This document shows, piece after piece, positions 8,697-50,157 of a DNA stretch of 64,000 nt. The notes below the pieces were generated by a model that was given only the letters and a program-made list of their open reading frames with translations, ran no database searches and had not been told where the DNA came from. The stretch's first letter is position 1. Every line of letters starts with the position of its first letter. A program made the position numbers and the translations under genes. This stretch comes from Myxococcota bacterium (GTDB taxonomy: Bacteria > Myxococcota_A > UBA796 > CAJQPC01), in NCBI GenBank assembly GCA_036229005.1, contig JAZAMN010000071.1, positions 96,001-160,000 on the forward strand. Direction: 5' to 3'.

Positions 8697-8988
8697 GCGC
8701 AAGTGCGGGTGAACGCAACAGCCGCCCGCTCAAGTAGGGCTGAACGCAACAACCGCCTGCGCAAGTCCGGGTGAACGCAACAAATCGGGCGCGGAGGGCG
8801 GGCCGCCGCGCGGGGCCCAACCTGATTCCAAGCACTTGGAAGAACCGCCTCCGCCAAGCCAGCCGCGAATGTTGCGTTCAGCGGCACTTGCGCGCCGCCT
8901 CGTTGCGTTCAGCGGCACTTGCGCGCCGCCCCGTTGCATTCAGCGGCACTTGCGCGCCGCCTCGTTGCGTTCAGCGGCACTTGCGCGC
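8697..8988. repeat. Bipartite inverted 31-bp repeat element, locus 1 (3 units + spacer + 4 inverted units)
   Basis: AAGT..TGAACGCAAC at 8701/8732/8763; GTTGCRTTCAGCGGCACTTGCGC at 8871/8902/8933/8964. Confidence 0.95.
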
Positions 8989-8989
8989 C

Positions 8990-10468
8990 TCAGCGCCGGC
9001 GCCGCAGCCCCAAACCCACCATCCCGACCACCAGCAGCCAGCCCCAGGCCGCGCCAGCCGGTGCGGTGCTGCAGCCCAGGCCGCCGCCGCCCTTGTACTG
9101 GCCGTCCAGGTCCTGGCTGGGGAAGTCGTCGCTGGGATCCAGCAGGTCGGTGCCGCGGTCGGCCTCGACGCCGTCGCGCACGCCGCCGTTGTCGGTGTCC
9201 GGGTTCAGGGGGTCGGAGCCGTACTCGTTGACCTCCTCGCCGTCGGTGAGGGTGTCGCGGTCGCTGTCCGGGTCCCAGGGGTCGGTGCCGTGCTCGTCCA
9301 CCTCCTCGCCGTCGCTGAGCCCGTCGTCATCGGAGTCGGCGTCGGTGGGGTTGGTGGCGGTCTCGTTGACCTCGCGGCCGTCGTCCAGGCCGTCGTCGTC
9401 GGTGTCGGCGTCGGTGGGATCGGTGCCGTGGTTGTTGACCTCGGCCCCGTCCAGCAGGCTGTCGCCATCGGTGTCCGGGTCGTTGGGGTCGCTGCCCCAC
9501 TCCAGGACCTCCTCGCCGTCGCTCAGGCCGTCGTCGTCGGAGTCGTAGTCGTTGGGGTCGGTGTCGTGGGTGTTGACCTCGGCGCCGTCACCCAGGCCGT
9601 CGCCGTCGGTGTCGAAGAGGTTGGGGTCGGTGCCCCACTCGTAGACCTCCTCCCAGTCGCTGAGGCCGTCGCCGTCGCTGTCGCCGTACTCCGGGGAGCA
9701 GACGCTCTCGCCGCGGGGATCAAGCAGGGTGTAGGTCACCGTGTCCTGGCTCAGGATGTAGAAGCCGAACTCGCCGCCCGTGGGGAAGCTGCCGGACTCG
9801 TCGAACTCCAGGGAGCCGTCGATCCACACGCGGATGCGGCTGGCGGTGTACTCCAGGTCCACGGTGTAGGTGCGGTCGAAGGTCCAGCCGACCTCGCCGA
9901 AGTTGTTGCCGGTGGCGACCACGCTGGCGCTGCCGGTCTGCTGCCACAGGTCCGTGTCCACGGTGGGGCCCTGCACCCGCATCATGGTCAGGCCCTTGGG
10001 GCAGTAGCCCAGCCCGGTGGTGTCCTGGTCGCCCTTCTTCCAGCTCCACACCATCCAGTCGGCGCTGGTGTTGGTGCTGTCGCCGGGGTGGTAGCCCACC
10101 AGGAAGCCGATGATGTCGTCGTCCCAGCTCGTGCCGGCGGTCATCTCGAAGCGGATGTTGCCGCTCTCGGCCGGCAGGTTGGTCAGGTAGACGCCGGGCG
10201 CGGCGTTCTGGGACTGGGTGACGGTGCGCTGGTCGCTGGACAGGGTCCAGTCGGGGTCGCCGTCGTGGCTGTAGCTGGTGGGCAGGACCTCATCGAACTG
10301 CAGCTCGAAGGTGCCGTCCACGCAGGACCAGCCGGCCTCCACCTGGCAGGTGGACGAGCAGCCGTCGGCCGAGGCCTTGTTGCGGTCGTCGCAGGTCTCG
10401 CCGCTGTCGACCACGCCGTCGCCGCAAGCGGCCTGGGCCATGGACAAGGAGAGCAGGGTGAGGAGCAT
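8990..10468 (-). CDS. Thrombospondin-like surface protein: myxococcal Cys-rich repeat + TSP C-terminal-like domain + 8 TSP type-3-like Ca-binding repeats + MYXO-CTERM-like tail
   Basis: [44 protein letters not shown]; 8x DxDxDGLxDGx[10 protein letters not shown] + TM + RRRR; start ATG 10468 after AGGA. Confidence 0.8.
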
Positions 10469-10640
10469 GGGAACCGTCCTGTTTTGCGCCCGGTGCCGGC
10501 GCGGTCCCGCCCTATAGCCGACAATTCCCTGACACCACCATTTCTTTGACAGCAGGCCCCTCATTGGCGGTTCTGCTTGACGCCCCGGGACAAAGGGCTA
10601 CCTCCCCACACGACAAATCGGGCAATGGGAGGCCCGCCCC

Positions 10641-11570
10641 ATGATCGAGGTATCCGAACTCACCCGCTACTACGGCCGCCACGCCGCGGTGCGGGACCTG
10701 AGCTTCTCCATCCAGGATCGCGAGATCGTTGGCTTTCTGGGCCTCAACGGCGCCGGCAAGTCCACCACCCTCAAGGTCCTCGCCGGCCTGCTCCTGCCCA
10801 GCTCCGGCACTGTGACGGTCGACGGTGTGGACGTGGTGAGCGCGCCCGACTCCCTGCGCGCCCAGATCGGCTTCCTCCCGGAGGACGCCCCCCTCTACAA
10901 GGACATGCGCGTCCGCGACTTTGTGCTCCACGTCGGCCAGCTCAAGGGCATGAGCGCCGCCCAGGCCGAGGCCCGCGTCGACGAGGTCCTGGACCGCTGC
11001 GGCCTCGCCCCGCGCGCCCGCCAGGTCATCTCCGAGCTCTCCCACGGCTACCGCAAGCGCGTCGGCATCGCCCAGGCCATCATCCACCAGCCCAAGCTGG
11101 TCATCCTGGACGAGCCCATCTCCGGCCTGGACCCCCTCCAGATCCGCGAGATCCGCCAGGTCATCCGCGGCCTCAAGCAGGACTGCACCGTCCTGATCTC
11201 CAGCCACATCCTCTCCGAGATCTCCCAGACCTGCGACCGCATCCTGGTCCTCAAGGACGGCCAACTGGTCGCCGAGGGCACCGAGGATGAGCTCGCCGCT
11301 CGCCAGTCCGGTGGTGGCAGCCTGAGCCTGGAGATCCGCGGTGACCAGGCCCGGGTCCAGCAGGTGCTCGAGGGGCTGGAGTCCGTCTCTTCGGTCTCCG
11401 TCCACACCGTCCAGGACGGGGTGGTGCACTGCAGCGTGCAGCTCAGCTCCGACACCCGCGAGGACATCGTGGCCGCGATCGTGGCCGCCGGCCTGGGCCT
11501 GCGTCGCCTGGACGACGGGGACGCCGAGCTGGAAGAGATCTTCGTGAACCTCACCCAGGGGAAGAACTGA
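10641..11570 (+). CDS. ABC transporter ATP-binding protein (GldA-like)
   Basis: Walker A GLNGAGKST, LSHGYRKR, ILDEP, H-loop SSHIL; GGAGG RBS. Confidence 0.9.
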   Translation: MIEVSELTRYYGRHAAVRDLSFSIQDREIVGFLGLNGAGKSTTLKVLAGLLLPSSGTVTVDGVDVVSAPDSLRAQIGFLPEDAPLYKDMRVRDFVLHVGQLKGMSAAQAEARVDEVLDRCGLAPRARQVISELSHGYRKRVGIAQAIIHQPKLVILDEPISGLDPLQIREIRQVIRGLKQDCTVLISSHILSEISQTCDRILVLKDGQLVAEGTEDELAARQSGGGSLSLEIRGDQARVQQVLEGLESVSSVSVHTVQDGVVHCSVQLSSDTREDIVAAIVAAGLGLRRLDDGDAELEEIFVNLTQGKN

Positions 11571-12295
11571 TGCGCGGCTTGATCCTGGTCGCCAAGCGCG
11601 AGCTGGGGGCGTACCTCAACACCTCCATGGGCTACGTCATCGTGGCCATCTTCCTGATGCTGGAGGGCCTCTTCTTCAACGCCTTCGCCGTCGGGAGCAG
11701 CCCCAAGGCCAGCGCGGATGTGCTGTCCGACTTCTTCTACTTCTCCTTTGGCTGCACGGTGGCCGCGGCGGTGTTCCTGAGCATGCGCCTGATCGCCGAA
11801 GAGCGGCAGACCGGCACCATTGTGCTGGTGCAGGCCAGCCCCCTGGCCAACTGGCAGCTCGTGGGCGGCAAGTTCCTGAGCGTGCTGGTGCTGCTGGCCG
11901 TGATGATGCTCATCTCCACCTACATGCCGGCCCTGATCTTCGTGAACGGCAAGGTCTCCCTGGGCCAGATTGGCGTGGGCTACCTGGGCGTCTTCCTGGC
12001 CTCCGCCAGCGCCGCCGCCATCGGCACCTTCGGCAGCACTCTCGCCCGCAGCCAGCTCGTGGCCGTCATCATCTCCGGCGTCATCGTGGTCGCCCTGCTG
12101 CTGGCCTGGCTGCTCGGCCGGGTCACCGACCCGCCCCTGGACGAGGTCTGGTCCTACCTGAGCCTCTACGACCGCCACTTCCAGCCCTTCCAGAAGGGCC
12201 GCCTGAACACGGAAGACGTGGTGTTCTACCTCTCCATGTGCTTCGGCTTCCTGATGCTCTCCACCCGGACCCTCAGCGCGCGGAGGTGGAAGTGA
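11570..12295 (+). CDS. ABC-2 type permease (GldF-like)
   Basis: KRELGAY, SMRLIAEERQTGT, about 6 TM; coupled to upstream stop. Confidence 0.85.
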   Translation: MRGLILVAKRELGAYLNTSMGYVIVAIFLMLEGLFFNAFAVGSSPKASADVLSDFFYFSFGCTVAAAVFLSMRLIAEERQTGTIVLVQASPLANWQLVGGKFLSVLVLLAVMMLISTYMPALIFVNGKVSLGQIGVGYLGVFLASASAAAIGTFGSTLARSQLVAVIISGVIVVALLLAWLLGRVTDPPLDEVWSYLSLYDRHFQPFQKGRLNTEDVVFYLSMCFGFLMLSTRTLSARRWK

Positions 12296-14157
12296 GCCCC
12301 GCAGCCATCCTGACCCTGGGCTCTCTGGCCCTGATCTTCGTCGGCCAGCGCCTGCTCACCGACACCACCGGCCTGGTGGTCTCCCTGGTGGGCGCCGCCG
12401 GCCTGGTCGCCGCCCTGGTCCTGCGCGTGCAGGCCCGCGGAAAGGCCGCCCACCCCAGCACCGCGGACGCCCACAAGCGCGCCTTGTTCCTGGGCATCGG
12501 CGTGCTGGCCTCCATGGCGCTCTACACCCTGAGCACCGACTGGTTCATCGACCTGGCCGGCCTGCAGGATGAGGCGGCGAGCCGCTGGCAGGTGGTGTTC
12601 TACGCCCTGTGGCCCATCGTCCTGCTCTGCTCCGCGGCCCCCCTGATGCTGCTGGACAGCGCCATCGAGGACAGCCCGCTGGCGGTGCAGCCCCTGCGGG
12701 TCAAGCACGCCGTGGACAACGGCCTGATCGCCGCCCTGGGCGTGAGCCTGCTCTTCCCGGTGAACTACCTGGCCAGCGAGCACAACGAGCGCTTTGACCT
12801 CGCCTACTTCAAGACCACCGAGGTTGGAGGGGCCTCCGCGGCGATCGTTGAGAGCCTCAGTGAGCCCGTGCTGGTCCGCATCTTCCTCCCCACCTCCTCG
12901 GACGTGGAGCCCGAGCTGCTGCCCTACTTCGAGCAGCTCGCCGCCCTCAACCCCGAGCACTTCTCGGTGCAGGTCATCGACCACGCCGCCGAGCCCGCGC
13001 TGGCCGAGAGCCTCAAGGTGCGCGACAACGGCTACGTCGCCCTGACCATGAACCCGGACACCGAGTCCGAGGTCACCAAGTCCTGGAAGATCGGGACCGA
13101 CCTGGACAAGGCCGAGCGCAACCTCAAGAAGCTGGACGAGGAGTTCCAAAAGCGCATGCTGGACCTGGCCAAGGGTGAGCGCATCGCGTACTTCACCGTC
13201 GGCCACGACGAGCTGAACTGGAAGGGCGGCGAGCTCCCCGAAGACAAGCTCAGCCAGCTCAAGACCGGCCTGCGGAACCTGAACTTCAAGGTCAAGGAGC
13301 TGGGCCTGACCCAGGGTCTGGGCAACAGCATCCCCGACGACGCCAGCGTGGTCGTGGTCATGGGCCCCAAGACCGCGTTCCTGCCCGCGGAGCTCCAGGC
13401 CCTCCAGGACTACCTGGCCCGCGGCGGCTCGGTGCTCATCGCGGTGGAGCCCGGCTCGGACGAGATCGCCGGCCCCCTGCTGGCCCCCCTGGGCGCCAAG
13501 CTCGGCCAGGGCACGCTGACCAGCGACAAGCCCGCCTCCTACATGACCCGCAACCGCAGCCTCTCGGACCGCCAGAACACGGTCACCAACCGCTACTCCA
13601 GCCACGAGAGCACCACCACGCTCTCCAAGTACAGCCGCCAGCTCCAGCTCATCACGCCGCGCGCCGGCTTCCTGGAGGAGGCCACCCCCGGCATCGCGGG
13701 CGCCAAGACCACCGTCACCGTGCGCAGCCTGCAGGACAACTGGGCCGACCTGGACGGCGACTTCGAGCTGAACCCCGCCACCGAGAAGCGCGAGGTCCGG
13801 CCCATCGCCATGGTCGCCACTGGCCCCGCCACCGCCGCCTCCCCGGAGGACCCCGAGGCCCCCGCCGAGTTCCGCGCCGTGCTGGTCGCCGACGCCACCC
13901 TCTTCTCCGATCTGGCCCTGGCCAACCAGGCCAACTCCGTGTTCGTGGGCGACGCCCTGAACTGGCTGCTCGGCGACGAGGAGCTCTCCGGCACCACCGA
14001 GTCCGAAGAGGACGTCAAGATCGAGCACACCAAGGATGACGAGGTCCTGTGGTTCTACGGCAGCTCCCTGGGCGTGCCCCTGATCCTGATGCTCCTGGGT
14101 CTGCTCCGCGTGTCCCGCCGCCGCAAGGACAGCACCGTCCTTCGGGAGGAGGTCTGA
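12292..14157 (+). CDS. GldG-like ABC auxiliary component
   Basis: N-terminal TMs, RFDL, YFTVGHDE, IPDDASVVVVMGPK, LQDYLARGG, DALNWL, C-terminal TM+RRRK; GTG 12292 overlaps upstream stop. Confidence 0.8.
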   Translation: MSPAAILTLGSLALIFVGQRLLTDTTGLVVSLVGAAGLVAALVLRVQARGKAAHPSTADAHKRALFLGIGVLASMALYTLSTDWFIDLAGLQDEAASRWQVVFYALWPIVLLCSAAPLMLLDSAIEDSPLAVQPLRVKHAVDNGLIAALGVSLLFPVNYLASEHNERFDLAYFKTTEVGGASAAIVESLSEPVLVRIFLPTSSDVEPELLPYFEQLAALNPEHFSVQVIDHAAEPALAESLKVRDNGYVALTMNPDTESEVTKSWKIGTDLDKAERNLKKLDEEFQKRMLDLAKGERIAYFTVGHDELNWKGGELPEDKLSQLKTGLRNLNFKVKELGLTQGLGNSIPDDASVVVVMGPKTAFLPAELQALQDYLARGGSVLIAVEPGSDEIAGPLLAPLGAKLGQGTLTSDKPASYMTRNRSLSDRQNTVTNRYSSHESTTTLSKYSRQLQLITPRAGFLEEATPGIAGAKTTVTVRSLQDNWADLDGDFELNPATEKREVRPIAMVATGPATAASPEDPEAPAEFRAVLVADATLFSDLALANQANSVFVGDALNWLLGDEELSGTTESEEDVKIEHTKDDEVLWFYGSSLGVPLILMLLGLLRVSRRRKDSTVLREEV

Positions 14158-15248
14158 TGAACAAGCAAGTGCTCCTGCTCGGCGGACTGCTGGGCCTGGC
14201 CCTGGTCGGCTCCTACATGAGCTGGACCTCCGAGGACGCCGCCGCCGACCGCGAGGGTGTGGTCCTGCTGGACGCCGCCCCCGAGCAGCTCGCCGGGGTG
14301 CTGTGGACCAGCGAGAACCTGGACGTCGAGATCAGCCGCCGCTCCGACGCCCTGGGCGACTACCTGTGGGTCAAGACCACGGAGAGGAAGGAGGTGGAGG
14401 TCCCCGTCGAGCCTGTGGAGTCCACCGCTACAGTGGCCCCTCCCCCCGAGCCGGGTGTGGATCCTGCCGCAGGCGAGGACACCGAGTCCGGATCCGAGCC
14501 CTCCGAGCCCGAGGTCGAGGTCGAGATCCGCACCACCATCACCGAGTTCAAGGCCGGCCCCACCGGCGACGAGCTCTTCGCGTCCCTGGCCCCGATGGTG
14601 GCCCAGCGCCGCCTGGATGTAGGCGCCGACCGCTACGCCGACTTTGGCCTGGAGAGCCCGGAGGCCACCCTCCAGGTCCAGCGGGCCGGCAAGGAGCCCA
14701 AGGCCATCCAGATCGGCGGCAGCGCCTACGGCACCCGCGACCGCTACGCCCTGGACGGCGAGACCGTCGTGCTCCTGGACCAGGAGATGCTCCGCCCCCT
14801 CAAGTTCGCGACCACCCGCCTGCCGGACCGCGAGCTCTACGGCGTGGAGACCCCCGACATCGCCGGCGTGCGCATCGAGGGCGAGGGCGTGCAGCTCCAG
14901 CTCCAGCAGCTCAACGCGGACGACGCGCGGAACGCCGGCTGGGCCTACGCGGGCCAGGAGGCCGCCGAGACCGACGAGTCCGCGGGCGCCTGGATGGCCA
15001 AGGCCCTGGGCCTCAAGGCCAAGAACTACGTGCAGGCCGACAACGCGCCCGTGAGCACCACCCCGGTGCTCACCCTGGAGCTGGCCGTGGAGGGCGGGGC
15101 CCCCCACAAGGTGGAGATCCTGCAGGGCACGGACCTCGCTGGCGCCGAGCAGTGGTACGCCCGCTCCAGCCACACGCGGGAGCTGGTGGTGCTCCACGAA
15201 GCCCAGGCCAGCGAGCTCGTCGCGGACCTCCCTGCGCTGGTCCCCTGA
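14157..15248 (+). CDS. DUF4340-like protein
   Basis: N-terminal TM, YADFGLESP motif, typical fourth gene of gldAFG-like operons; ATG overlaps upstream TGA. Confidence 0.7.
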   Translation: MNKQVLLLGGLLGLALVGSYMSWTSEDAAADREGVVLLDAAPEQLAGVLWTSENLDVEISRRSDALGDYLWVKTTERKEVEVPVEPVESTATVAPPPEPGVDPAAGEDTESGSEPSEPEVEVEIRTTITEFKAGPTGDELFASLAPMVAQRRLDVGADRYADFGLESPEATLQVQRAGKEPKAIQIGGSAYGTRDRYALDGETVVLLDQEMLRPLKFATTRLPDRELYGVETPDIAGVRIEGEGVQLQLQQLNADDARNAGWAYAGQEAAETDESAGAWMAKALGLKAKNYVQADNAPVSTTPVLTLELAVEGGAPHKVEILQGTDLAGAEQWYARSSHTRELVVLHEAQASELVADLPALVP

Positions 15249-15326
15249 GCGCACATCAGGGAGAACCCTGACACATACCTGCAAGGCAACTGAGGAGAAA
15301 GCCGGTAGGGGCTACCCTATCGACGA

Positions 15327-17846: not shown

Positions 17847-17868
17847 GCTGAGGTGGCTGGGAGGCACA

Positions 17869-18528: not shown

Positions 18529-18696
18529 GCGCCCAGCCCGCCCGGAGGCTCCAGGGCCCCGCCCCCGAGGCCACGCCGAAGATCCAGGTCTGCTCGACGA
18601 TCTCAGGGTCGTGACCACGGGGAGGGCCCTGCCCCCTGCAAGTGTTTCGCCCCAACCCAAGTGTTAAGCCTCCCCCGCACCGAACGGCCCCCCGAC

Positions 18697-20282: not shown

Positions 20283-20285
20283 AGG

Positions 20286-20320
20286 AGAAAACCTCCGCCT
20301 GGAAAATCCCAAGCGGAGGT
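20286..20320 (-). terminator. Intrinsic terminator
   Basis: Minus strand ACCUCCGCUUGG-GAUUUU-CCAGGCGGAGGU followed by UUUCU. Confidence 0.75.
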
Positions 20321-34680: not shown

Positions 34681-34954
34681 GCGGGCGCAACCCGGGGTGA
34701 ATGCACCGGATGCGGGCTCAACCTGGGGTGAATGCACCGGGTGCGGGCTCAACCTGGGGTGAATGCACCAGGCGCGGGCTCAACCCGGGGTGAATGCACC
34801 GGGCGCGGGCTCAACCCGGGGTGAATGCACCCGATTCGGGCGCGTGGCCGCGTGAGAGCGGCCTGGATGGTGCACTCGGTGGGGGTTGAGTCGGAGAGAG
34901 GTGCACTCGGATGGGGTTGAGTCGGAGACCGGTGCACTCAGATGGGGTTGAGCC
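34681..34954. repeat. Bipartite inverted 31-bp repeat element, locus 2 (5 units + spacer + 3 inverted units)
   Basis: GCGGGCKCAACCYGGGGTGAATGCACC at 34681/34712/34743/34774/34805; GTGCACTC..GGGGTTGAG at 34870/34901/34932. Confidence 0.95.
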
Positions 34955-38902: not shown

Positions 38903-39008
38903 GCATCGACGAGGACAGGCTGAGGTGGGCCATTCCACCCGAGCCCCGTGCGATCTGCCCCAGAGACGACACAGTCGCTGGCGCCTTGCTGCGTGCTACC
39001 GTCGACAC

Positions 39009-40370: not shown

Positions 40371-41674
40371 GCGCGCTGTTCACCCTGCTGCTGGCCTGCA
40401 CCCCCGAGCCCGCTCCCCAGGACACCCAGCCCCAGGACTCCCCGAGCGACAGCCCAGCAGACAGCGGGGACACCGGCGCGCAGACCTGCACCCTGGCCCT
40501 GGAGGCCTTGGTGGACGCGCAGCCTCTGGACGGCAGCCACCACCTGGGCAGCACCGCCGAGAAGGGCGAGGCCCTCACCCTGAGCCTCACCCTGCACAAC
40601 CCCTGCGCGCAGCGCCTGCGCTTCCTGGGACACCCCGACGAGTGGGTGCTCGGCGAGGGCTTCTCCCTGGGCACCCTGCCGCCGGTCTACCTGGACCCCG
40701 ACGCCTCCGCGACCCTGGAGCTGCACTTCCAACCCGGCGACGCCGGCGAGGCCACCGGCAGCTTCCGGCTCCCCTACGACCTGCCCAGCTCCCCCCTGGA
40801 GCTGTCGCTCTCCGCCACGGTCGACGGCCCCCTCACCCTGGTGTTCGTGGGCGATGGCCGCCACGTGCTCACCACCCACGACTACGGCGCCAGCTTCTCC
40901 ACCGACGCCTACGAGACCACCGTCGCCCACGGCGACAGCCTCCAGCGCGGCGTCTGCGCCAGCCCCGAGCTCTTCGTGAGCGTGGGCGGCAACGTCGACA
41001 GCCGCTGGTGGCGCAGCGTCGACGGCGACACCTGGACCGCCCACAGCGACCCCAGCGGCCCCGTGTTCGCCGCCTGCGCCTACGGCGACGGGCGCTTCGT
41101 CGCGGCCACCAGCGACGCCCCCTGGACCTCCACCGACGGCCTGAGCTGGAGCGCCGGGAGCGGCGACTACGCGGGCGGGCACCTGCGCGCCATGGCCTTC
41201 TCCGGGGGCACCTACGTGGCCGTCGGGGACAGCGGCAAGGTCTCCGCCACCACCGACGGCAGCACCTGGCAGATCGAGCACCACCTAAACGTGGGCGACC
41301 TGGGCGCGGTGGCCGGGCACGGACAGACCTTCGTGGCCGTGGGCGACGGGGGCACCGTGGTCACCTCCACCGACGGCGCGCAGACCTGGAGCCTGCTCTC
41401 GGTGGGCAGCGCCGACCTCAGCGGCGTCGTCTGGGCCCAGGACCGCTTCGTGGCCGGCGGCGGCGGTCAGCTCCACAGCTCCCTCGACGGCACCACCTGG
41501 TCCAGCGTGAATGCCGGACCGGACCGACCGGTGCTGGCGGTGGGCCCACAGATCTTCGCGCTCTCCGGCGCCTCTGTCCTCCTCTCCGAAGACGGCGGAT
41601 TCTCCTGGACAACGCTCTACACCTGGACGGGCGGACTGGGCGTCAGCCGCGCCGCCGCTGGGGGGACCCCATGA
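40367..41674 (+). CDS. Lipoprotein with Ig-like domain and BNR/Asp-box beta-propeller (paralog of upstream gene)
   Basis: LLLAC; LTLHN..LDPDASATLELHFQP; at least 6 SxDGxTW repeats; ATGA overlap. Confidence 0.8.
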   Translation: MSALFTLLLACTPEPAPQDTQPQDSPSDSPADSGDTGAQTCTLALEALVDAQPLDGSHHLGSTAEKGEALTLSLTLHNPCAQRLRFLGHPDEWVLGEGFSLGTLPPVYLDPDASATLELHFQPGDAGEATGSFRLPYDLPSSPLELSLSATVDGPLTLVFVGDGRHVLTTHDYGASFSTDAYETTVAHGDSLQRGVCASPELFVSVGGNVDSRWWRSVDGDTWTAHSDPSGPVFAACAYGDGRFVAATSDAPWTSTDGLSWSAGSGDYAGGHLRAMAFSGGTYVAVGDSGKVSATTDGSTWQIEHHLNVGDLGAVAGHGQTFVAVGDGGTVVTSTDGAQTWSLLSVGSADLSGVVWAQDRFVAGGGGQLHSSLDGTTWSSVNAGPDRPVLAVGPQIFALSGASVLLSEDGGFSWTTLYTWTGGLGVSRAAAGGTP

Positions 41675-43563
41675 TGCTCCTGGGACTGCTGGCCCTGGCC
41701 TGCGAGACGCCCGAGACCCAAGACACCCAGGTCTGCGTGACCGACGCGGTCTTCTTTGAAGAAGAGGTGGCGCCGGTGCTCTCCGACTGCGTGGGCTGCC
41801 ACCTGGAGGGCGGGGTGGCCTCCGAAGCCCGCTACGCGCTGGCGGTGGGCACAGACGAGGACACCCTGGCCGCGAACCGCGCCGCACTCGAGGCCTTCAT
41901 CCTGGACACCGAGGACGGCGCCGATCTGCTGCTGGACAAGCCCAGCGGGCAGATCTCCCACGCCGGCGGCCTGCGCATGGACCGCTCGGACCCGGCCTAC
42001 GCCGCCCTCCACGAGTTCGTGGCCCGCACCCAGGACCCCGGCGGCTGCGCGCACCCCGGCACGCCCCTGCCCACCTGCGACGGCGGCGAGCTCCAGGGCG
42101 CGCCCATCGCCCCCCGGCGCCTGACGGACGCCCAGATCCGCAACGCCGCCCGGGACCTCTTCGGCGTCGACCCCGGCCCCGGGGTGTTCCCGCCCAGCGT
42201 GCGCGGCAAGGACTTCCGCACCTTCGCCAGCGCCAACCCGGTCAGCGGACCGGACGCCGAGCAGCTCATGCTGGCCGCCGAGACCGTCGCCGAGCTGGTG
42301 GACGTGGACGCGCTGCTGGCCGGCTGCGCCACCGACGCCTGCGCCCACGACTGGGTGCTGGAGACCGCCGAGCGCGCCTACCGGCGCCCCCTGACCCAGA
42401 AGGAGCAGCAGATCGCCACCCGCTTTGTGGACGCGGGGCTCTCGGTGGACGAGGGCGTGCGCATGTCCATCATGCTGCTGCTGCAGTCCCCGCAGTTCCT
42501 GTACCTGGACGCGGTCCCCGAAGACTCGGGCGTGCTGGACGACCACGCCATCGCGGCGCGGCTGGCCTTCTTCCTGACCGACACCCTGCCCGACGAGACC
42601 CTGCGGGAGGCGGCTGCCGCCGGGGAGCTGCACACCCGCGAGCAGGTCGCCGCCCAGGCCGCCCGGCTGGTCCAGGACCCCCGCGCTCTGCGGGCCGTGG
42701 AGAACTTCCACGACGACTGGCTGGACGGCTACCGCATGGACGGCGCTGAGCGGGACGCCAGCTACTACCCGCACTTCTCCGAGGCCACCCTGGCCAGCAT
42801 GCAGGCCGAGATGGACCTGATGGTCACCGAGGTGCTCTGGGGCGGCGAGGCCACCTTCGCCAACCTGATGTTCAGCCAGACCACCTGGGTGGACTCCGAA
42901 CTGGCTGCCATCTACGACCTGCCCGATCCTGGCCCCGGCTGGCACCGGGTGGAGCTGGGGCCGGAGCGCCCCGGGGTCCTGACGCGGGCGGGCTTCCTCA
43001 CGGGACACGCCTACACCGCGTCCAGCTCGCCGGTGCAGCGGGGGGCCTTCGTGCTGCAGGAGATGCTCTGCGAGGAGCTGGTGCCCCCGCAGGACGTCAA
43101 CATGGACCTGCCCCCCGAGTCCGAGGAGGCCGAAACCATCCGCGAGCGCCTGGCCCAGCACGCCGCCGACCCCGCGTGCGCGAGCTGCCATGACCGCATG
43201 GACCCCATCGGCTTCGCCTTCGAGAACTTCGACGCCGTGGGCTCCTGGCGCGATGCCTGGGAGTCGGGCATCCCGGTGGACGCCACCGGCAGCCTCGCGG
43301 ATCCCGCTGGGGACTTTGACGGCGCCGCCGAGATGCTGGGCAGCGTGGCCACCTCCGAGCGCGCCATGCGCTGCTACGCGCAGCGCTGGTACGAGTACGG
43401 CCAGGGGCGCCCGGTGGACGACGCCGACCTGTGCAGCCTGAGCGCCGTGCAGGCCCGCTTCGAGGCCTCGGGCGGCGACATCCGTGCCCTGATGGTGGAC
43501 ATCGCGGTCAGCGACGCCTTCCGCGCCCAGATTCCCTCCGAGACCGCCCAGGAGGCCGAATGA
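41671..43563 (+). CDS. DUF1592/DUF1588/DUF1585-type lipoprotein with two CxxCH heme-c motifs
   Basis: CVGCH; RRLT..N..RDLFG; RAYRRP; LQSPQFLY; RPGVLT; SSPVQRG; CASCH..DPIGFAFENFD. Confidence 0.9.
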   Translation: MMLLGLLALACETPETQDTQVCVTDAVFFEEEVAPVLSDCVGCHLEGGVASEARYALAVGTDEDTLAANRAALEAFILDTEDGADLLLDKPSGQISHAGGLRMDRSDPAYAALHEFVARTQDPGGCAHPGTPLPTCDGGELQGAPIAPRRLTDAQIRNAARDLFGVDPGPGVFPPSVRGKDFRTFASANPVSGPDAEQLMLAAETVAELVDVDALLAGCATDACAHDWVLETAERAYRRPLTQKEQQIATRFVDAGLSVDEGVRMSIMLLLQSPQFLYLDAVPEDSGVLDDHAIAARLAFFLTDTLPDETLREAAAAGELHTREQVAAQAARLVQDPRALRAVENFHDDWLDGYRMDGAERDASYYPHFSEATLASMQAEMDLMVTEVLWGGEATFANLMFSQTTWVDSELAAIYDLPDPGPGWHRVELGPERPGVLTRAGFLTGHAYTASSSPVQRGAFVLQEMLCEELVPPQDVNMDLPPESEEAETIRERLAQHAADPACASCHDRMDPIGFAFENFDAVGSWRDAWESGIPVDATGSLADPAGDFDGAAEMLGSVATSERAMRCYAQRWYEYGQGRPVDDADLCSLSAVQARFEASGGDIRALMVDIAVSDAFRAQIPSETAQEAE

Positions 43564-44945
43564 GCCGCATCAACCGCCGCGCCTTCCTCCGCGCCGGCGC
43601 CGCTACCCTGGCCGTGCCCGCCCTGACGCGCTTCCGCAGCGCCCACGCCGCCACCTATGGGCTGCCCAAGCGCATGCTGGTGCTGCACAGCCCCCAGGGC
43701 ACCGTGATGCGGGACTGGGTGCCCACCGGCAGCATCGAGGACTTCGCCCTGGGGCCCATCACCTCGCCGCTGGCCCCCTTCCAGGACCGCATCATCGTGG
43801 TCGCCGGCTGCGACAACAAGATGCCCGGCTACAACAGCGTCGGGAACGCGCACTACAACGCCAACCAGACCTTCCTGACCGGCCGGCCCTTCGCCGCCCA
43901 GGACTCGGCGGCCATCTCCGCGGGCGGCCCCAGCATCGAGCAGGTCATCGCCAGCCGCATCTCCACGGAGACCCCCTTCCCCCGCCTGGACTTCGCCATC
44001 GGCGGCAGCGACAACGGCACGGGCTTCTTCACGCCCACCGAGAGCAGCTACTTCTGGATCGACGCCTACGACCCGGTCTCCTACTTCAACGACCCTGTCC
44101 TCGCGTCGCTGCGGATCTTCGGGGATGCCTCGGTCGCGCCCGCGGACCAGTGGGCCGAGCGCGCGACGCGGGCCAGCGTGCTTGGCGGTGTGCTCGCGAA
44201 CTTCGACGCGCTCTCCCCCTCCCTCTCCAGCGAGGACCGCAGCCGCCTGGACGCCCACGCGGAGAAGGTGGCCGCCCTGGAGGCCCGCATCGCCTCGGGC
44301 ACCGGCGCGTGCACGCCGCCCACCCTCAGCCTGCCCTCGGACTACGACCTGGCCGACGACGACGACGTGACCGCGCCCGTGATGGCCGACGTGCTGATCA
44401 CCGCGCTGGCCTGCGACATGACCCGGGTGGCCACGCTGCACTTCGCCAACGGGCACTCCCCCACCTTCCCCTGGCTGACCGCCCGCAACGGCGGGAGCCC
44501 CATCGTGGACCCCAGCCTCTTCGACGTGTGGCACACCATGGTCCACGCCGACTACCAGGCCGGCATGGAGCTGGCCTACCAGTGGTACTACGAGCAGTGG
44601 GCCGCCATCCTGGAGCAGATGGCCAACACCACCGACGCCGACGGCGACAACCTGCTGGACACCACGCTGGTCATGATGGTCTCCGAGTTCAGCTCGGGGC
44701 GGCACTGGAACCGCAACCTGCCCATCGTGTTGGCCGGCTGCGTGGGGGACGCGCCCCTGGGCCGCTGGCTGGACTACCGACCCGGCAGCGTCGACGACTA
44801 CGAGGCGGCCAACGGCTATCTGGACAGCGCCTACAGCACCAACCAGCTCTACGTCTCGCTGCTGCAGGCCTTCGGCTACTCCGACGAGGCCTTTGGCTAC
44901 ACCGCCGACGAGCTCCCCGCGGGGCCCCTGCCCGGCCTTCTCTGA
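43560..44945 (+). CDS. DUF1552 family protein, Tat substrate
   Basis: INRRAFLR; SIEQVIA; DRSRLDAH; ALACDMTRVAT; NLLDTTLV..SE..H..NLP..AG. Confidence 0.9.
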   Translation: MSRINRRAFLRAGAATLAVPALTRFRSAHAATYGLPKRMLVLHSPQGTVMRDWVPTGSIEDFALGPITSPLAPFQDRIIVVAGCDNKMPGYNSVGNAHYNANQTFLTGRPFAAQDSAAISAGGPSIEQVIASRISTETPFPRLDFAIGGSDNGTGFFTPTESSYFWIDAYDPVSYFNDPVLASLRIFGDASVAPADQWAERATRASVLGGVLANFDALSPSLSSEDRSRLDAHAEKVAALEARIASGTGACTPPTLSLPSDYDLADDDDVTAPVMADVLITALACDMTRVATLHFANGHSPTFPWLTARNGGSPIVDPSLFDVWHTMVHADYQAGMELAYQWYYEQWAAILEQMANTTDADGDNLLDTTLVMMVSEFSSGRHWNRNLPIVLAGCVGDAPLGRWLDYRPGSVDDYEAANGYLDSAYSTNQLYVSLLQAFGYSDEAFGYTADELPAGPLPGLL

Positions 44946-44949
44946 GGGC

Positions 44950-47900
44950 TCAGCCCGGGAACAGGCCCAGGCGCTGCAGGCGCCCCACGAAGCTGCGCCG
45001 GAGCTCCTCCGGCATGCCGGAGAGCTGGCGCTGGACCAGCTCGCGCAGCTCCTGGTCGGGGGAGACGCCCAGGGTGCCCAGCAGGAGCAGGGCCTCCATG
45101 CGGAGGGCGGCCATCCCGGGGGTCTGGGTGAGCTTGGCGCAGCGCTTGGCGTGGGCCAGGGCGGCGCCGCTGGCGCCCTCGCGGATCATGGCCCAGGAGC
45201 GGTAGAGCTCCCAGCGGGCGGCGTCGCCGACGCCGGGTGGGGGCTGGGGGCTGTGCTTGAGGCCGCGCACGCCGACGGGGCCCAGGACCTGCATGCCGAC
45301 GTGGTAGAGCAGCTCCTGGCCGACAGGGTCCAGGACAGGATCCGCCAGCTCCTGGGAGACGAGGCCGGGCAGGATGGCCTGGCACTCGTCGGTCTGACCA
45401 GCGCTCATGTAGGCCTCGCTCAGCAGGAGCTGGGCGCGGGAGACCAGGTCGGGCTGCTCGGCGTTGCGGGCGATGCGCATGGCGCGGCGGGCGCGGTCCA
45501 GGGCGACCCGCAGGCGGCCGTCCAGCAGGGCCAGATCGGCGCTGTGCAGCATGCAGGCGGCGCGCTCGCGGGGGTGGCCGTCGTCCAGCTTCTGCTCGGC
45601 CAGCTCCAGGGCACGGGTGGCCCGGATCAGGTTTCCGGCGCGCAGCTCCAGGGTGCCCAGGCCCAGCAGGCTGCGGCCTTCCTGCAGGCGGTCCCCGGAC
45701 TTGCGGGCGGCGCTCAGGGCGCGCTCCCAGGTGCGTGCGGCCTCGGCGCGCTGACCGTCGGCCAGCCAGGCGTCAGCCAGGGCGCGGGTGAAGTCGTGGC
45801 GCGAGGGGTGGGAGACGGGCAGCACCTCCAGGGCGGCCTGGAGCTGGCCGCGGGCCTGGCCGGGCTCGCCCAGATCCAGCAGCGCCTGGCCCAGCAGGCC
45901 GCGGATGCGGGCCTGCTCGCTGGCCTCCAGGTGGCTCATGGAGAGGGCCTCGTGCAGGCAGTGCCCAGCCTCGGCGGGCTCGCCCTGCTCCAGCAGGACC
46001 TCGCCCTGCAGGGAGAGCATGGTGCAGGCGAGCTGGGGCTGGTCGGGCTCCGGCATGAGGGCCCGGACCTCGAGCGAACGCTCGGCCAGCCGGCGGGCCG
46101 CGCCCAGGCGGCGCCGGCGGCGCTCCCAGCTCGCGGCGCGGGCCAGCAGGGGCCAGGCCTGGGCGGGCTCGCCGGCCCGCAGCAGGTGGGTGGCGGCGCG
46201 CTCGGCCACGGAGCCGATGCGGCGGCGGTGCTTGCGCTGGAGCAGCGCGGCGGCCTGGCGGTTGAGCTCCGCGCGGCTGCCGCCGTCCAGGCCCTCCAGG
46301 ACCACCCGCAGGGTGTCCTTCTGGGCAAAGCGAAGCTGCTCCTGCAGGCCCTCGCCGGCGCGGAGCAGCAGGGGGTCCAGGCGGGGGTCGCTCAGGGCGC
46401 GGGGGCCGCCGGGGCTCAGGCCTGCGATCAGCCCCAGGTCGGCCTCGCCGTCCAGGATGGCCAGGGCCTCCAGGGCCTGGCGCGCGGCGTGCCCGATCTC
46501 GGCCAGGATGCCCTCGACGAGCTCCCGATGGGCCTGGGGTACGGGCAGCTCTCCCCCCCGGACGCGCGCGGCCGGGACGGTGAGGACGAGACCTTCGTCG
46601 GAGGCCTCCAGCCACCCTGCCTCGTGAAAGGCCTGGAGCGCCTGGAGCACGCCCCCGGGGCGGCCCTCGCACCAGGCGTGGAGGCGCTGACCGGCCACCC
46701 GGGCGGCCTTGGCGCTCAAGCCCTGGTCCCGCAGCATGGCGACGATGGCGCGGCGGGGCAGCGGGCCGCAGTCCAGGGCCTGGGCCTCCAGATCGATCCA
46801 CAGGCCGGAGCGCAGGCGCTCCAGCAGGAAGGCGGTGTCCTCGCTCAACGGCTGCCCGGTGCGCCCGGTGAGTACGTAGATCAGCAGGACCTGGCGGGCC
46901 AGGCGGTCATCGCGCAGCAGGGCCTCGATGGCGCCCATGTCTGCACGGGTGCCTCGGTCCAGGTCATCCACCAAGAGCAGTGTGGGCTCGGGTACGACCC
47001 CCTCCAGAGTCAGCTCCTCCAGGGCCTGACCCAAGGGGGCGTCGCCAGGCAGTCGGCGCTGGAGCACCCGGAGCCCCAACTCGCTGGCCTGCTCGGAGAT
47101 GGCGCCCAGGAGCGCGCTGCGGCCGCTGCCCGGGAGGCCCAGGATGGCCATCTCACCGCCCTGCCCGCGGCGGAGCTCGCTGATGCGCTGACCGGCGTGG
47201 CGCAGATCCTGCTGGCGGCCGTGAAGGCGCTGGTGGTGACCGGTGTCGGGGGCGTCCAGGGCCTCCAGAACCTCGCCGGCGGACTGGGGACGCTGGCTGG
47301 GGTCCTTGCGCAGGAGCCGCATGCACAGGCGGGAGAGCTTGTGGGGGCACGCGGGGTTGACCTGCAGAGGCGGGGGCGGGTCCTCCATCAGGTGCTTGGC
47401 CAGGTAGCCGGCGATGGAGTCGGCCTCGACGGGGCGGTTGCCGGTGAGCAGCACGTAGAAGACGGCGCCCAGGGCGTAGAGGTCGACGCGGGGGGAGATC
47501 TCCTCTTCGGTGATCTGCTCGGGGGCCATGAAGGCGACGGTGCCCACCAGGTGCCCGGCCATGGTCAGGTTGGTGGTGAACTGGTCGGGGGCCTTGACCG
47601 AGCCGAAGTCGGTGAGCTTGGGGTTTCCGTGGGCGTCGATGAGGATGTTGGAGGGCTTGATGTCCCGGTGCACGAGGCCGCGGTCGTGGATGTGGGCCAG
47701 GGCCAGGCAGAGGCCCCGCAGCAGCCGGGTGGACTCGGCGAAGCGGTCCACGCCAGGGCGCTCCTCCCAGCGGTGGAGGAGCTCTTCCAGCGTGCCGCCG
47801 CTGACGTGCTCCAGGACCAGGTAGGGGTAGCCCTGCTCCTCTCCCGACGAGAGCACCTTGACCACGTGCGGGCTGTCCATGAGCTGCATGGCCTGGAACT

Positions 47901-48093
47901 CGCGGTGGATGCGCGTGACCTGCTCGGGCGTGGTGCGGTCCGGGTTCATGACCTTGACGGCGACGGGGCCGTCCGGGCCGTCGGCGCGCCAGACGGTGGC
48001 CAGACCTCCGGCGCCCAGGCGCTCCTGGAGGCGGTAGGGGCCGACCAGACTTCCAGGCCCGGGAGGGGGCCCCAGGCGACGGGGTGAACTCAT
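44950..48093 (-). CDS. Ser/Thr kinase + STAND-like ATPase + TPR-like repeats
   Basis: GAGGLATV, HRDIKPSN, DFG; LHGR, GLPGSGRS, LLVDD, CEGRP. Confidence 0.9.
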   Translation of the reverse strand: MSSPRRLGPPPGPGSLVGPYRLQERLGAGGLATVWRADGPDGPVAVKVMNPDRTTPEQVTRIHREFQAMQLMDSPHVVKVLSSGEEQGYPYLVLEHVSGGTLEELLHRWEERPGVDRFAESTRLLRGLCLALAHIHDRGLVHRDIKPSNILIDAHGNPKLTDFGSVKAPDQFTTNLTMAGHLVGTVAFMAPEQITEEEISPRVDLYALGAVFYVLLTGNRPVEADSIAGYLAKHLMEDPPPPLQVNPACPHKLSRLCMRLLRKDPSQRPQSAGEVLEALDAPDTGHHQRLHGRQQDLRHAGQRISELRRGQGGEMAILGLPGSGRSALLGAISEQASELGLRVLQRRLPGDAPLGQALEELTLEGVVPEPTLLLVDDLDRGTRADMGAIEALLRDDRLARQVLLIYVLTGRTGQPLSEDTAFLLERLRSGLWIDLEAQALDCGPLPRRAIVAMLRDQGLSAKAARVAGQRLHAWCEGRPGGVLQALQAFHEAGWLEASDEGLVLTVPAARVRGGELPVPQAHRELVEGILAEIGHAARQALEALAILDGEADLGLIAGLSPGGPRALSDPRLDPLLLRAGEGLQEQLRFAQKDTLRVVLEGLDGGSRAELNRQAAALLQRKHRRRIGSVAERAATHLLRAGEPAQAWPLLARAASWERRRRRLGAARRLAERSLEVRALMPEPDQPQLACTMLSLQGEVLLEQGEPAEAGHCLHEALSMSHLEASEQARIRGLLGQALLDLGEPGQARGQLQAALEVLPVSHPSRHDFTRALADAWLADGQRAEAARTWERALSAARKSGDRLQEGRSLLGLGTLELRAGNLIRATRALELAEQKLDDGHPRERAACMLHSADLALLDGRLRVALDRARRAMRIARNAEQPDLVSRAQLLLSEAYMSAGQTDECQAILPGLVSQELADPVLDPVGQELLYHVGMQVLGPVGVRGLKHSPQPPPGVGDAARWELYRSWAMIREGASGAALAHAKRCAKLTQTPGMAALRMEALLLLGTLGVSPDQELRELVQRQLSGMPEELRRSFVGRLQRLGLFPG

Positions 48094-48115
48094 GGGCAGA
48101 GGTTAGCAGGAAGCA

Positions 48116-49357
48116 ATGGCATCCCCCTCCTGGCTCAGTGACCCGCAGGCGGCGTTGCGCAACCTGGTGCGCATGCGCTGGGCGCAGGGTGTGCTGCTGG
48201 CGATCGCGGCCGCGGCGGCGTGGATGGGGAACCGCGAGCTGACCGCGCTGCAGATGCTGATGCCCCTGGCGCTGCTGGGCGTGAGCAACCTGGCGCTGGA
48301 GCGTCTGGTCCAGGCGCGGCACACGCCCCCGTGGATGCCCACCGCCGCGCTGCTGCTGGACCTGGGCCTGCTGACCGTGATCCTCAGCGTGTCGGGGGGA
48401 CCAATGAACCCCTTCGTCGCGGCCTACCTGGCGGTCATCGTGGGGGCCAGCCTGCTGCTGGGCCGCCGCGGGGTGGTCGCGGTGCTGGTGAGCGCGGTGG
48501 CGGCCTACGGGCTGCTCTTCCTGACCCCCGGGGGCCGCTCGGAGCACGCCCAGCACATGGCCGGGCACCTGTGGGGGATGTGGCTGGCCACGGCGCTGGT
48601 GGGCGCCTTCGCGGCGGGCGCGATCCTGGCGTACCGGAGCGCACTGGCGGCGGCGGAAGAGGCCCTTCGGGAGGCGGAGGCGGAGCGTCAGCGGGGTGAA
48701 CAGCTCGCGGCCCTGGGCACCCTGGCGGCGGGGGCGGCGCACGAGCTGGCGACCCCGCTGTCGACCATCGCGGTCGTGGCCAAGGAGCTGGAGCTGCAGC
48801 TTGAGGACCCCCAGGCCCGCGAAGACGCAGCGCTGCTCCGGGAAGAGGTGGGTCGCTGTCGGGGCATTCTGTCGCAGATGGCGGTTCAAGTTGGGGCATC
48901 GCCGGCCAGCTTCGGCGAGCAGATCGCAGTGCGGGAGCTGATCGACGAGGCGCTGACCGGGGTGCTGGAGGCGCCGGAGGTTGAGCTCGTGGTGACCTCG
49001 TCGGCGCGCTGCAGCCTCAAGGTGCCCGGGAGCCTGATGGCCAGCGTGGTGAGGAGCCTTGTGCGCAACGCCCAGCAGGCCTCCTCCCCCGACTCCCCGG
49101 TGCAGCTCCTGGTGGATCGCAGCGACGCGGGCGTGCGCATCTCCGTGAAGGACCGGGGCAAGGGGATGGACGCGGCGACGCTGGCGCGGGCCTTGCAGCC
49201 CTTCTTCACGACCAAGGAGACGGGAGCCGGAATGGGACTGGGTCTGTTCGTGGCAGACAGCGTGGCGCGGCAGTTGGGCGGTAGGCTCCTGCTGGAGTCC
49301 GCGCCGGGTCAGGGCACGACGGCCACCCTGGAGCTCCCGCTGGAGGTGTGTGCATGA
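48116..49357 (+). CDS. regB: RegB/PrrB-family redox sensor histidine kinase
   Basis: LVRMRW, SGGPMNPF, HLWGMW, AAHELATPLSTI, RCRGIL, PFFTTK, GMGLGLF. Confidence 0.85.
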   Translation: MASPSWLSDPQAALRNLVRMRWAQGVLLAIAAAAAWMGNRELTALQMLMPLALLGVSNLALERLVQARHTPPWMPTAALLLDLGLLTVILSVSGGPMNPFVAAYLAVIVGASLLLGRRGVVAVLVSAVAAYGLLFLTPGGRSEHAQHMAGHLWGMWLATALVGAFAAGAILAYRSALAAAEEALREAEAERQRGEQLAALGTLAAGAAHELATPLSTIAVVAKELELQLEDPQAREDAALLREEVGRCRGILSQMAVQVGASPASFGEQIAVRELIDEALTGVLEAPEVELVVTSSARCSLKVPGSLMASVVRSLVRNAQQASSPDSPVQLLVDRSDAGVRISVKDRGKGMDAATLARALQPFFTTKETGAGMGLGLFVADSVARQLGGRLLLESAPGQGTTATLELPLEVCA

Positions 49358-49878
49358 GCGACAAAGAGAGCATCCTGGTGGTGGACGACGACGTCCGGCT
49401 GGCCGGCCAGATGGCCCGGGCGCTGGAGCGGCGCGGCTACGTGACCGAGGTCGCGCACGACGGCGGCGAGGCCCTGGAGCTGATGCGCGAGGACCCCACC
49501 GAGTGGGTGCTGCTGGACCTCAAGATGCCGGGCGCCGACGGGCTCTCGGTGCTCAAGGAGATGATGGCGCTCACGCCCCAGCCCCGGGTGGTGATGCTGA
49601 CGGGCTTCGCGTCGCTGGGTACGGCCGTGGAGGCGGCCCACATGGGCGTGGTGCAGGTGCTCCAGAAGCCGGCCGACGCGGACGAGGTGGTGGCAGCGTT
49701 CACAGAGGGTCGAGGGCAGACGGAGGTCCACGCCCCCACCCTCGCGCGGGCGGAGTGGGAGCACATCCAGCGGGTCCTTGACGAATGCGAGGGCAACATC
49801 AGCCAGGCGGCCCGGGTGCTGGGGCTGCACCGGCGGACGCTGCAGCGGAAGCTCTCGAAGAACGCGCCCAAGCGTTGA
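49354..49878 (+). CDS. regA: RegA/PrrA-family response regulator
   Basis: REC domain plus LARAEWEHIQRVL..CEGNISQAARVLGLHRRTLQRKL. Confidence 0.9.
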   Translation: MSDKESILVVDDDVRLAGQMARALERRGYVTEVAHDGGEALELMREDPTEWVLLDLKMPGADGLSVLKEMMALTPQPRVVMLTGFASLGTAVEAAHMGVVQVLQKPADADEVVAAFTEGRGQTEVHAPTLARAEWEHIQRVLDECEGNISQAARVLGLHRRTLQRKLSKNAPKR

Positions 49879-49889
49879 GGCTTGGTGGG

Positions 49890-50157
49890 CGTCCGGCCGG
49901 GCATCCGGGGGTGAATGCACGCTCCGGCCGGGCATCCGGGGGTGAATGCACGCCCTCGCCGGGCATCCGGGGGTGAGTGCACGCTCTGGCCGGGCATCCG
50001 GGGGTGAATGCACGCTCAGGGGCCAGGATCGCGTGGAGTTCGGGCGTTCAGGGCGGGATGCCCCGGAAACGCGGGCGTTCAGGGGAGGATGCCCCGGAGA
50101 GGCGGGCGTTCAGGGCGGGATGCCCCGGAGAGGCGGGCGTTCAGGGCGGGATGCCCC
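49890..50157. repeat. Bipartite inverted 31-bp repeat element, locus 3 (4 units + spacer + 4 inverted units)
   Basis: GCATCCGGGGGTGARTGCACG at 49901/49932/49963/49994; CGGGCGTTCAGGG..GGATGCCCC at 50041/50072/50103/50134. Confidence 0.95.

Follow-up and report, generated by a model that had tools for sequence, protein, structure and literature searches.

Paired arrays of 31-bp units in a Myxococcota genome and the RAYT-related HUH genes that adjoin them

INTRODUCTION

The known repeat families closest to those described here are the REPtrons, in which a RAYT (REP-associated tyrosine transposase) or TnpA-REP gene (4ER8) accompanies repetitive extragenic palindromes (REPs), REP doublet hairpins (REPINs) or bacterial interspersed mosaic elements (BIMEs). 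The cited passages on these systems (PMC3333891, PMC8266576, PMC5581495) describe one HUH Y1 gene per adjoining repeat family, many intergenic copies at gene ends in inverted arrangement and amplified locally in tandem, linkers of which some (BIME-1) contain an IHF site, and targeting of the repeats by an insertion sequence (IS). These traits recur in the elements that we describe here, three of which (L1, L2 and L3) lie in a 64,000-nucleotide stretch, the window, of a marine Myxococcota bacterium (positions 96,001 to 160,000 of contig JAZAMN010000071.1, forward strand, assembly GCA_036229005.1). Each element is gene-less and consists of two inward-facing arms of tandem 31-bp units; such elements form five families in the genome, and we regard an HUH protein encoded beside each family as very probably its partner.

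Among the TnpA-Y1 enzymes, subclass 2.1 (2.1.2; Bertels group 1) comes closest to these proteins. As given in the cited part of Quentin 2018 (PMC6006769), it is the second largest TnpA-Y1 group (14.9% of species) and has NHVH, YIHLNP and following serine motifs and a C-terminal helix-turn-helix related to Bac_DnaA_C; the same text found no REP-like sequences near its genes and doubted that the C-terminal domain reads flanking repeats. Elsewhere, the passages cited give group 1 only modest 16-mer repeats (Bertels et al., PMC5581495), treat groups 2 and 3 (Corneloup et al., PMC8266576) or describe terminal inverted repeat (TIR) families (Di Nocera 2013, PMC3733652). We found no published description of the present element in the literature searched, though examples could stand among the flanking repeats listed in the supplements to PMC6006769 and PMC3733652.

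RESULTS

Five repeat families, each beside its own HUH gene

The genome (G000; 6.4 Mb, 70% G+C, 74 contigs, 94% complete; its contigs are C20, C24, C58 and so on) proved rich in such arrays. The first-pass annotation of the window had reported a period of exactly 31 bp, which holds in L1, L2 and L3 and far beyond them: Tandem Repeats Finder (TRF) gave 203 rows at period 31 vs. 4, 6 and 0 at periods 28, 29 and 32, and 485 of the 518 distances below 200 bp between neighbouring units were 31, with 22 more at 62. A profile scan found 243 arms, 236 of them forming 118 inward-facing pairs, while the seven unpaired arms all lie at contig ends. Both arms are of the same family in 117 of the 118 elements, and the families comprise 30 (A, with L1), 20 (B, with L3), 12 (C, with L2, plus one C/A), 12 (D1) and 43 (D2) elements. 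Stray units outside elements are few (six above score 16). By a crude open reading frame (ORF) caller, called flanks are gene 3' ends in 143 of 181 instances, and the 71 elements with both sides called lie between convergent (44), tandem (23) or divergent (4) genes. The partition site that had also been suggested does not suit 118 dispersed copies.

A Pfam Y1_Tnp search of the genome gave no match; the HUH gene was found by translating the gap between two close B elements. tblastn gave exactly five such genes in G000, each adjoining a different family: the C24 gene has B elements on both sides, the C32 and C21 genes are followed directly by families A and C, and the C52 and C27 genes are preceded by D1 and by an IS-interrupted D2 arm, respectively. 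Adjacency is one to one for the five genes and five families. All five genes lie outside the window, in agreement with the earlier statement that it contains no cognate enzyme, and the longer copies enclosing a gene between left and right arm that had been envisaged were absent among the 243 arms.

The five proteins match NCBIfam REP_Tyr_transpos below its cut-off (E 4e-9 to 2e-7) and 4ER8 at E 0.003. Across 121 homologues, conservation of H43, H45 and Y99 is at least 90%, and by sequence the catalytic motifs are intact. An AlphaFold model (pLDDT 94) resembles 4ER8 (Foldseek E 3.5e-5; VIA-align Z 12.7, root mean square deviation (rmsd) 2.7, 136 aligned), and its residues 166-242 resemble DnaA domain IV, 1J1V (VIA-align Z 10.1, rmsd 1.9, 77 aligned); the C-terminal domain also gives weak Pfam helix-turn-helix matches. 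The protein is thus predicted to join an N-terminal TnpA-REP nuclease fold to a C-terminal DnaA-domain-IV-like helix-turn-helix. A homodimer prediction scored 0.00 and was used neither for nor against any reading.

A sigma-54-type -24/-12 motif, by what we take to be the consensus, stands no more than 70 bp upstream in 59 of 66 clade genes vs. 2 of 66 downstream controls (loci L001-L075), and rpoN is present in the genome. Beyond this motif an inverted repeat, GTGTCGAA/TTCGACAC, possibly an activator site, occurs upstream in 52 of 66; the same hairpin motif occurs downstream in 13 of 66 loci. From these signals, conditional control of the HUH enzymes seems likely.

Two kinds of IS meet the arrays. 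A multicopy IS, presumably IS110-like, is inserted at a fixed position in D2 units and is seen at contig ends of C15, C22, C27, C29, C58 and C71 (L005 3' end); all five of its right ends are followed by the same six bases (three in D2-like units), all four left ends abut D2 arms, and it breaks the element before the D2 partner gene. Other IS ends, which we take to be IS256-like, occupy the starts of C28, C53 and C63, two of them abutting D1 arms.

Arm distances follow the helical repeat

Measured between innermost units, the arms of an element stand only near 61, 71, 82, 92, 103, 133/134, 144/145, 154 or 175 bp apart (±1-2). The best period for these distances is 10.4 bp, with R 0.95 over the 118 elements and R 0.96 over 24 family-distance classes. 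Modulo 31 the distances fall into three distinct phases ten bases apart; a missed unit would add 31 and leave the phase unchanged. Such quantised spacing supports the first-pass suggestion that a protein binds repeated sites along a single helical face.

The spacers that keep this geometry are mostly unrelated (median identity 0.38 in 2254 pairs of like length), and their A/T content oscillates at 10-11 bp in 8 of 8 length classes in G000 and 2 of 2 in relatives (p 0.002 for each class, against a null of rotated spacers). The 10.4-bp steps and the phased A/T tracts fit duplex DNA, and a hairpin loop gives no reason for either. A motif that we assume to be the IHF consensus was seen in every long A spacer (9 of 9), close to the middle, and in 2 of 4 long B spacers, compared with 0 of 62 short spacers and a genome rate of 0.03/kb. 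Seven genes of the HU/IHF family are present in G000. The motif string itself stands in the H-NS row of a table in the extracted text of PMC6907758.

Units are bipartite and hold no stable hairpin

Each unit is built of an 8-bp box, five variable bases (N5), a 10-bp box and an 8-bp variable linker. The boxes are family-specific (identity 0.83-0.87 between arms or loci), which modifies the earlier description: the first box is indeed common to both arms of an element (0.86), and rather than being specific to the locus it is just as alike between loci of the same family (0.87). The proposed shared core, KCA-N8-TGAAYGC, describes families A, B and C and not D1 or D2, whose first box is GCTACG. 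Within an arm, identity is 0.73 for N5 and 0.59 for the linker, while between the arms of an element it drops to 0.30 and 0.32, below the 0.43 and 0.38 seen between loci, in keeping with the claim that these bases are not complementary between arms. From this local likeness, arms appear to grow by duplication of units in place, and a perfect inverted repeat between arms appears to be avoided.

Mean unit folding energies of -2.3 to -4.5 kcal/mol in the five families lie near those of shuffles (-2.2 to -3.6), and no structure was dominant; a REP-type unit hairpin was ruled out on these values. GT[AG]G is mostly absent from A, B and C units. GTAG occurs on one strand of D1 (94 of 100) and D2 (244 of 268) units, inside box 1, with no stem after it. 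L3 can fold arm to arm (z -2.0), and its centroid structure is nearly unpaired. Element ends have no terminal repeat or conserved end bases, and no target duplication was found, the longest shared flank words equalling the shuffled-pair null; a miniature transposable element with inverted repeats (MITE), which has both a terminal inverted repeat and a target duplication, was accordingly ruled out.

The arrangement recurs across the order

HUH matches were found in 30 of the 61 genomes of the order that were searched, G000 included (the others are G001, G002, G021, G060 and so on, with G003 a congener of G000), and the HUH clade counts 220 representatives at E ≤ 1e-30. We examined 30 HUH-gene loci returned by the order search and 40 more from among the best-scoring matches (L001, L017 and so on). 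Flanks repeat at lag 31 in 36 of 61 clade loci and at lag 32 in nine, with one to five at other lags. With every lag between 26 and 36 allowed, within about 600 bp and at a score threshold chosen after the scores had been seen, an element of two direct and two inverted units stood beside 47 of the 61 non-G000 clade genes (37 of period 31, 10 of period 32) and beside none of 8 distant homologues. In these relatives the unit sequence changes from one gene to the next. When units were registered by sequence alone, the arm distances of 46 loci, a set that left out G000's four loci and L020, shared a phase of -1.5 (R 0.82), vs. -1.4 in G000.

A held-out set was drawn from 109 further loci, less 40 that were at least 90% identical to earlier ones and two duplicates (one earlier locus slipped in, L093 being L017), and was run with threshold and profile fixed. 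Of its clade loci 31 of 49 passed, 30 at period 31 or 32 and one as a low-complexity match at 27, as did none of 18 distant homologues, and the phase was -1.7 (R 0.81). Acidobacteriota or Gemmatimonadota stand in the titles of some records of this set, although the titles there look unreliable. The 31-32-bp period and the 10.4-bp ladder of arm distances are common across the relatives.

Dispersed arrays cognate to a genome's own gene were found in G002 and G060, in 0 of 4 other genomes of each search, and also in gene-bearing G001. The A/B-type two-unit pattern occurs in 5 of 61 genomes, each of which has the gene: G000, G001 and G002, with a single occurrence in G021 and another in G039. Congener G003 gave neither the pattern nor an HUH gene. 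The loci of period 32 (L008, L015, L022, L036, L037, L055, L059, L062, L065 and L066) sit on several separate branches of the protein tree, and G001 and G002 contain both periods. Some relatives, among them G008, G021 and G034, have 10-19 HUH-clade matches per genome, and those examined each have a different unit sequence.

Unit sequence tracks the predicted recognition helix

Co-variation was measured in 50 gene-element pairs with tree distance removed. The strongest signal for box 2 (unit positions 18-23) came from residues 217-224, the recognition helix predicted by the model (partial r 0.41, family-wise p 0.0003); for box 1 there was a weak one at residues 57-64 (r 0.16, p 0.011). Among single residue-base combinations, residue 224 and base 19 ranked first, with G accompanying Arg in 33 of 37 cases and other residues in 1 of 13. 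Held-out loci repeated this (13 of 17 vs. 2 of 13, p 0.0025, two of the 13 being alignment gaps) and paired Arg219 with AC at positions 22-23 (10 of 15 vs. 0 of 13, p 0.00025). Further signals, for box 2a at residues 111-120 and for the gap at 41-48, may be driven by few rows.

Possible traces of movement, and a check of the assembly

Unlinked copies with unrelated flanks share a spacer in two cases (C20:283379/C58:1012, identity 0.92; C27:33192/C58:6356, 0.87), and a trio with spacer identity 0.82 also shares about 60 bp on one side. At the L3-syntenic site of G002, the sole syntenic congener, about 170 bp without an array separate the response-regulator and kinase genes, which in G000 are separated by 482 bp. 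In the congeners, the gene that follows the peptidase locus at L1 differs or is not covered, and no orthologue was found for L2.

Contigs from three sequencing runs (X1, which may be the source sample, X2 and X3) provided a cross-check of L2 and L3. An independently assembled X1 contig spans L2 without a difference, so the assembly artefact considered in the first-pass annotation can be set aside for L2, and X2 and X3 contigs span the spacers of L2 and L3. X2 differs in L2 by at least 15 substitutions in 274 bp, vs. 169 in the 15,157-bp contig, mostly in N5, linker and spacer; for the L2 right arm, differences from a conspecific population lie mostly in N5 and linker bases. Just past L3 and outside the element, 111 bp (window 50236-50346) are missing in populations X2 and X3.

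The three elements of the window

All three elements were recovered where the first-pass annotation had placed them (Table 1), with 3+4 (L1), 5+3 (L2) and 4+4 (L3) units. Unit starts in L1 are 8697/8728/8759 on the left and 8893/8924/8955/8986 (minus strand) on the right. L1 and L3 lie between convergent genes and L2 between two minus-strand genes; a TSP3-repeat protein gene (8990-10564) ends at L1, and a response-regulator gene has its stop 21 bp before the L3 left arm. In that arm a B first box is combined with a second box nearer to C, while the right arm is pure B, a possible exchange between families.

Table 1. Parts of the three window elements, in window coordinates
Feature	Position	Strand	Description
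L1 left arm	8697..8781	+	Family A, 3 units, GCGCAAGT-N5-TGAACGCAAC, period 31
L1 spacer	8782..8870	.	89 bp, arm-distance class 134
IHF-like site near middle of L1 spacer	8826..8838	+	Predicted bend; overlapping minus-strand match too
L1 right arm	8871..8986	-	Family A, 4 units
L2 left arm	34685..34831	+	Family C, 5 units, GCKCAACC-N5-TGAATGCACC
L2 spacer	34832..34868	.	37 bp, arm-distance class 82
L2 right arm	34869..34953	-	Family C, 3 units
L3 left arm	49899..50014	+	Family-B first box (GGGCATCC), C-like second box, 4 units
L3 spacer	50015..50040	.	26 bp, arm-distance class 71
L3 right arm	50041..50156	-	Family B, 4 units, GGGCATCC-N5-TGAACGCCCG

A Pfam scan covered 23 of the 194 listed window ORFs and found no transposase or recombinase among those 23. 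Rfam at gathering score gave 0 matches in the window, and an ARAGORN scan of it for tRNA genes was empty. Ser/Thr kinases, several with AAA/TPR domains, make up 6 of the 23 scanned ORFs (window 5559-53807), as is typical for Myxococcota. Tandem repeats of 7 and 14 bp form a separate abundant class in G000 (78 and 58 TRF rows), some of them adjoining elements.

DISCUSSION

Comparison with described systems

The partnership of gene and repeat works like that of RAYT and REP, yet tests for a REP hairpin, a GTAG foot, a TIRtron and a MITE came out negative. Unlike REPtron repeats, the units here are bipartite, have no stable hairpin or GTAG foot and keep a fixed 31-32-bp period; the arm distance is locked to helical turns, the arms avoid full complementarity, and in the predicted DnaA-IV-like domain of the enzyme the recognition helix varies along with the sequence of the units. 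The first-pass annotation had named a match to a known REP/BIME family among the findings that would refute its reading: kinship stands, since the enzyme is a RAYT/TnpA-REP relative, whereas the REP hairpin tests and the Rfam scan speak against the match itself. Its non-autonomous element is supported as probable, with a dedicated enzyme; a classical element enclosing a transposase or recombinase gene was not borne out.

Other systems share single features. At relaxase and Rep origins (oriT, rolling-circle), an HUH nuclease is recruited via duplex sites with an IHF-type bend, and in DnaA-box arrays phased sites are read by the DnaA-IV fold; here, by contrast, there are no plasmid, transfer or replication genes, the copies are many, short and chromosomal, and no nic site was identified in the elements. 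MITEs and eukaryotic Foldback elements are likewise gene-less, with mirror-image arms of tandem units, and have a DDE transposase as partner, whereas the partner here is an HUH enzyme and the elements have no terminal inverted repeat or target duplication.

The five G000 proteins share the motifs (NHVH/NH[YF]H, Y[IV]HLNP and a proximal serine motif) and the predicted C-terminal domain of subclass 2.1 and differ from it in having no W[EQ]/FQ motif between HUH and Y and in missing Pfam Y1_Tnp; Trp at the W-motif is the majority residue in the wider clade. An upstream GGGGTGTC hairpin loosely recalls the TIR motif GGGGWSAS that is often present in TIRYT/TIRtron systems. Where a TIRtron gene sits inside one pair of long terminal inverted repeats, the HUH gene here is not so enclosed and has whole two-armed elements on one or both sides, and about 118 are dispersed.

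A possible mechanism and the case against it

We lean towards reading the elements as a gene-less, helically phased REP/RAYT variant that is read as looped duplex DNA. Duplex recognition by the helix-turn-helix we consider likely. One HUH protein would bind each 23-bp unit. Its recognition helix (residues about 217-224) would read box 2, and residues about 55-68 of a nuclease-domain helix perhaps read box 1, for which the support is weaker. All units lie on one helix face. A U-turn of the spacer, bent by phased A/T tracts or by IHF, would lay the arms side by side in a loop. Where the DNA is unwound for a time, the catalytic tyrosine would then nick it, much as a relaxase nicks oriT, and the nick would prime strand transfer or rolling amplification. 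Such amplification, like that proposed for BIMEs in the cited part of PMC3333891, could yield new copies at gene ends and add or remove whole 31-bp units. Binding, cleavage and mobilisation by the HUH protein are inferred from sequence, and the whole chain, spread of the element by the enzyme included, is one that we favour only slightly.

A number of observations weigh against this reading. E. coli TnpA-REP gave no shift of double-stranded substrates in the cited passage of PMC3333891, which leaves the extra domain as the source that any duplex binding would need. Anchored crudely, the phase comparison across genomes failed at first (R 0.11) and passed only after sequence-based registration; 14 of 61 and 19 of 49 clade genes (first and held-out sets) have no period-31/32 element within about 600 bp. 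For the recognition code, held-out loci are kin of training loci, so their p-values overstate, and an independent-pairs test, underpowered, was not significant (on average 3.7 of 5 pairs in the predicted direction, 0 opposite, p 0.125), as was the case for three other residue/base pairs (p 0.125-0.5). The IHF-like motif was relaxed after the spacers had been seen, and it occurs in 0 of 43 D2 spacers and 0 of 46 spacers of relatives. As to movement, the G002 site is too diverged for junctions, there is no clean empty site (L2 and L3 are present in X2 as well as in X3, populations with about 1% divergence), and the mostly unrelated spacers, the completeness of nearly all elements and the scarcity of stray units fit host selection equally.

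Such host selection is the core of the strongest alternative, which we judge unlikely, though well short of negligible: the same proteins bind, and the elements are kept as a domesticated structure, whether as loops or topological insulators or as gyrase or IHF sites, with movement rare or historical. It would account for the placement at gene 3' ends and mostly between convergent genes, for a geometry that is kept while the spacer sequence is randomised, and for the scarcity of decayed copies. The cited literature offers precedents in the 10.75-bp G/C periodicity of the gyrase motif and gyrase enrichment at BIME-2 and downstream of transcription (PMC6379681), and in the IHF sites of BIME-1 (PMC3333891). 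Five families with five enzymes, unit sequences that change rapidly between species, patchy presence (30 of 61 relatives with a match, none in G003) and intact catalytic residues look, on the other hand, self-propagating, and this alternative and the reading as a looped duplex variant may both hold.

Recognition of single strands, as unit hairpins or one long arm-to-arm hairpin of REPIN or foldback type, seems improbable to us. The nuclease domain is TnpA-REP-like, studied members of the family act on single strands in the passages cited (PMC8266576, PMC3333891), and the arm-to-arm fold of L3 and the one-strand GTAG of D1/D2 units lean the same way; against them stand the near-shuffled folding energies in all five families, the absence of GT[AG]G from most A, B and C units, the nearly unpaired L3 centroid, N5 and linkers that are less alike between arms than between loci, and 10.4-bp steps and phased A/T tracts that a hairpin loop does not explain. 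Cleavage itself may still need a single strand. We find it more improbable again that the arrays are sites of some other host protein, with HUH genes merely inserted beside them or autoregulated. The similar distance of upstream elements from the sigma-54-like promoter in many loci would suit this, and regulatory use of the elements at the HUH gene is possible; against it, the unit sequence is particular to each HUH gene, there are elements downstream of the gene too, more than 110 copies are far from any HUH gene, and the bases of the units co-vary with the recognition helix of the enzyme itself.

Implications

Going further than the looped duplex variant itself, we offer as a tentative and rather doubtful proposal that the lineage moved from single-stranded hairpins to duplex reading via a DnaA-type helix-turn-helix with a decodable code, and that each of its paralogues builds and maintains a population of protein-zippered loops at gene ends which the host uses to structure its chromosome. 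On this proposal the arrays would spread themselves as a repeat family and at the same time, with their enzymes, serve as orthogonal modules for DNA looping and nicking that can be retargeted.

For the question of how RAYT enzymes spread their repeats, the substrate here is defined to the base pair. In this clade nature provides dozens of enzymes together with their targets, all of one fixed geometry and with a recognition code open to testing, and five orthogonal pairs in one genome amount to built-in specificity controls. If duplex recognition is true, the enzymes differ in this from all members of the family studied so far, and a small nickase that can be retargeted comes into view.

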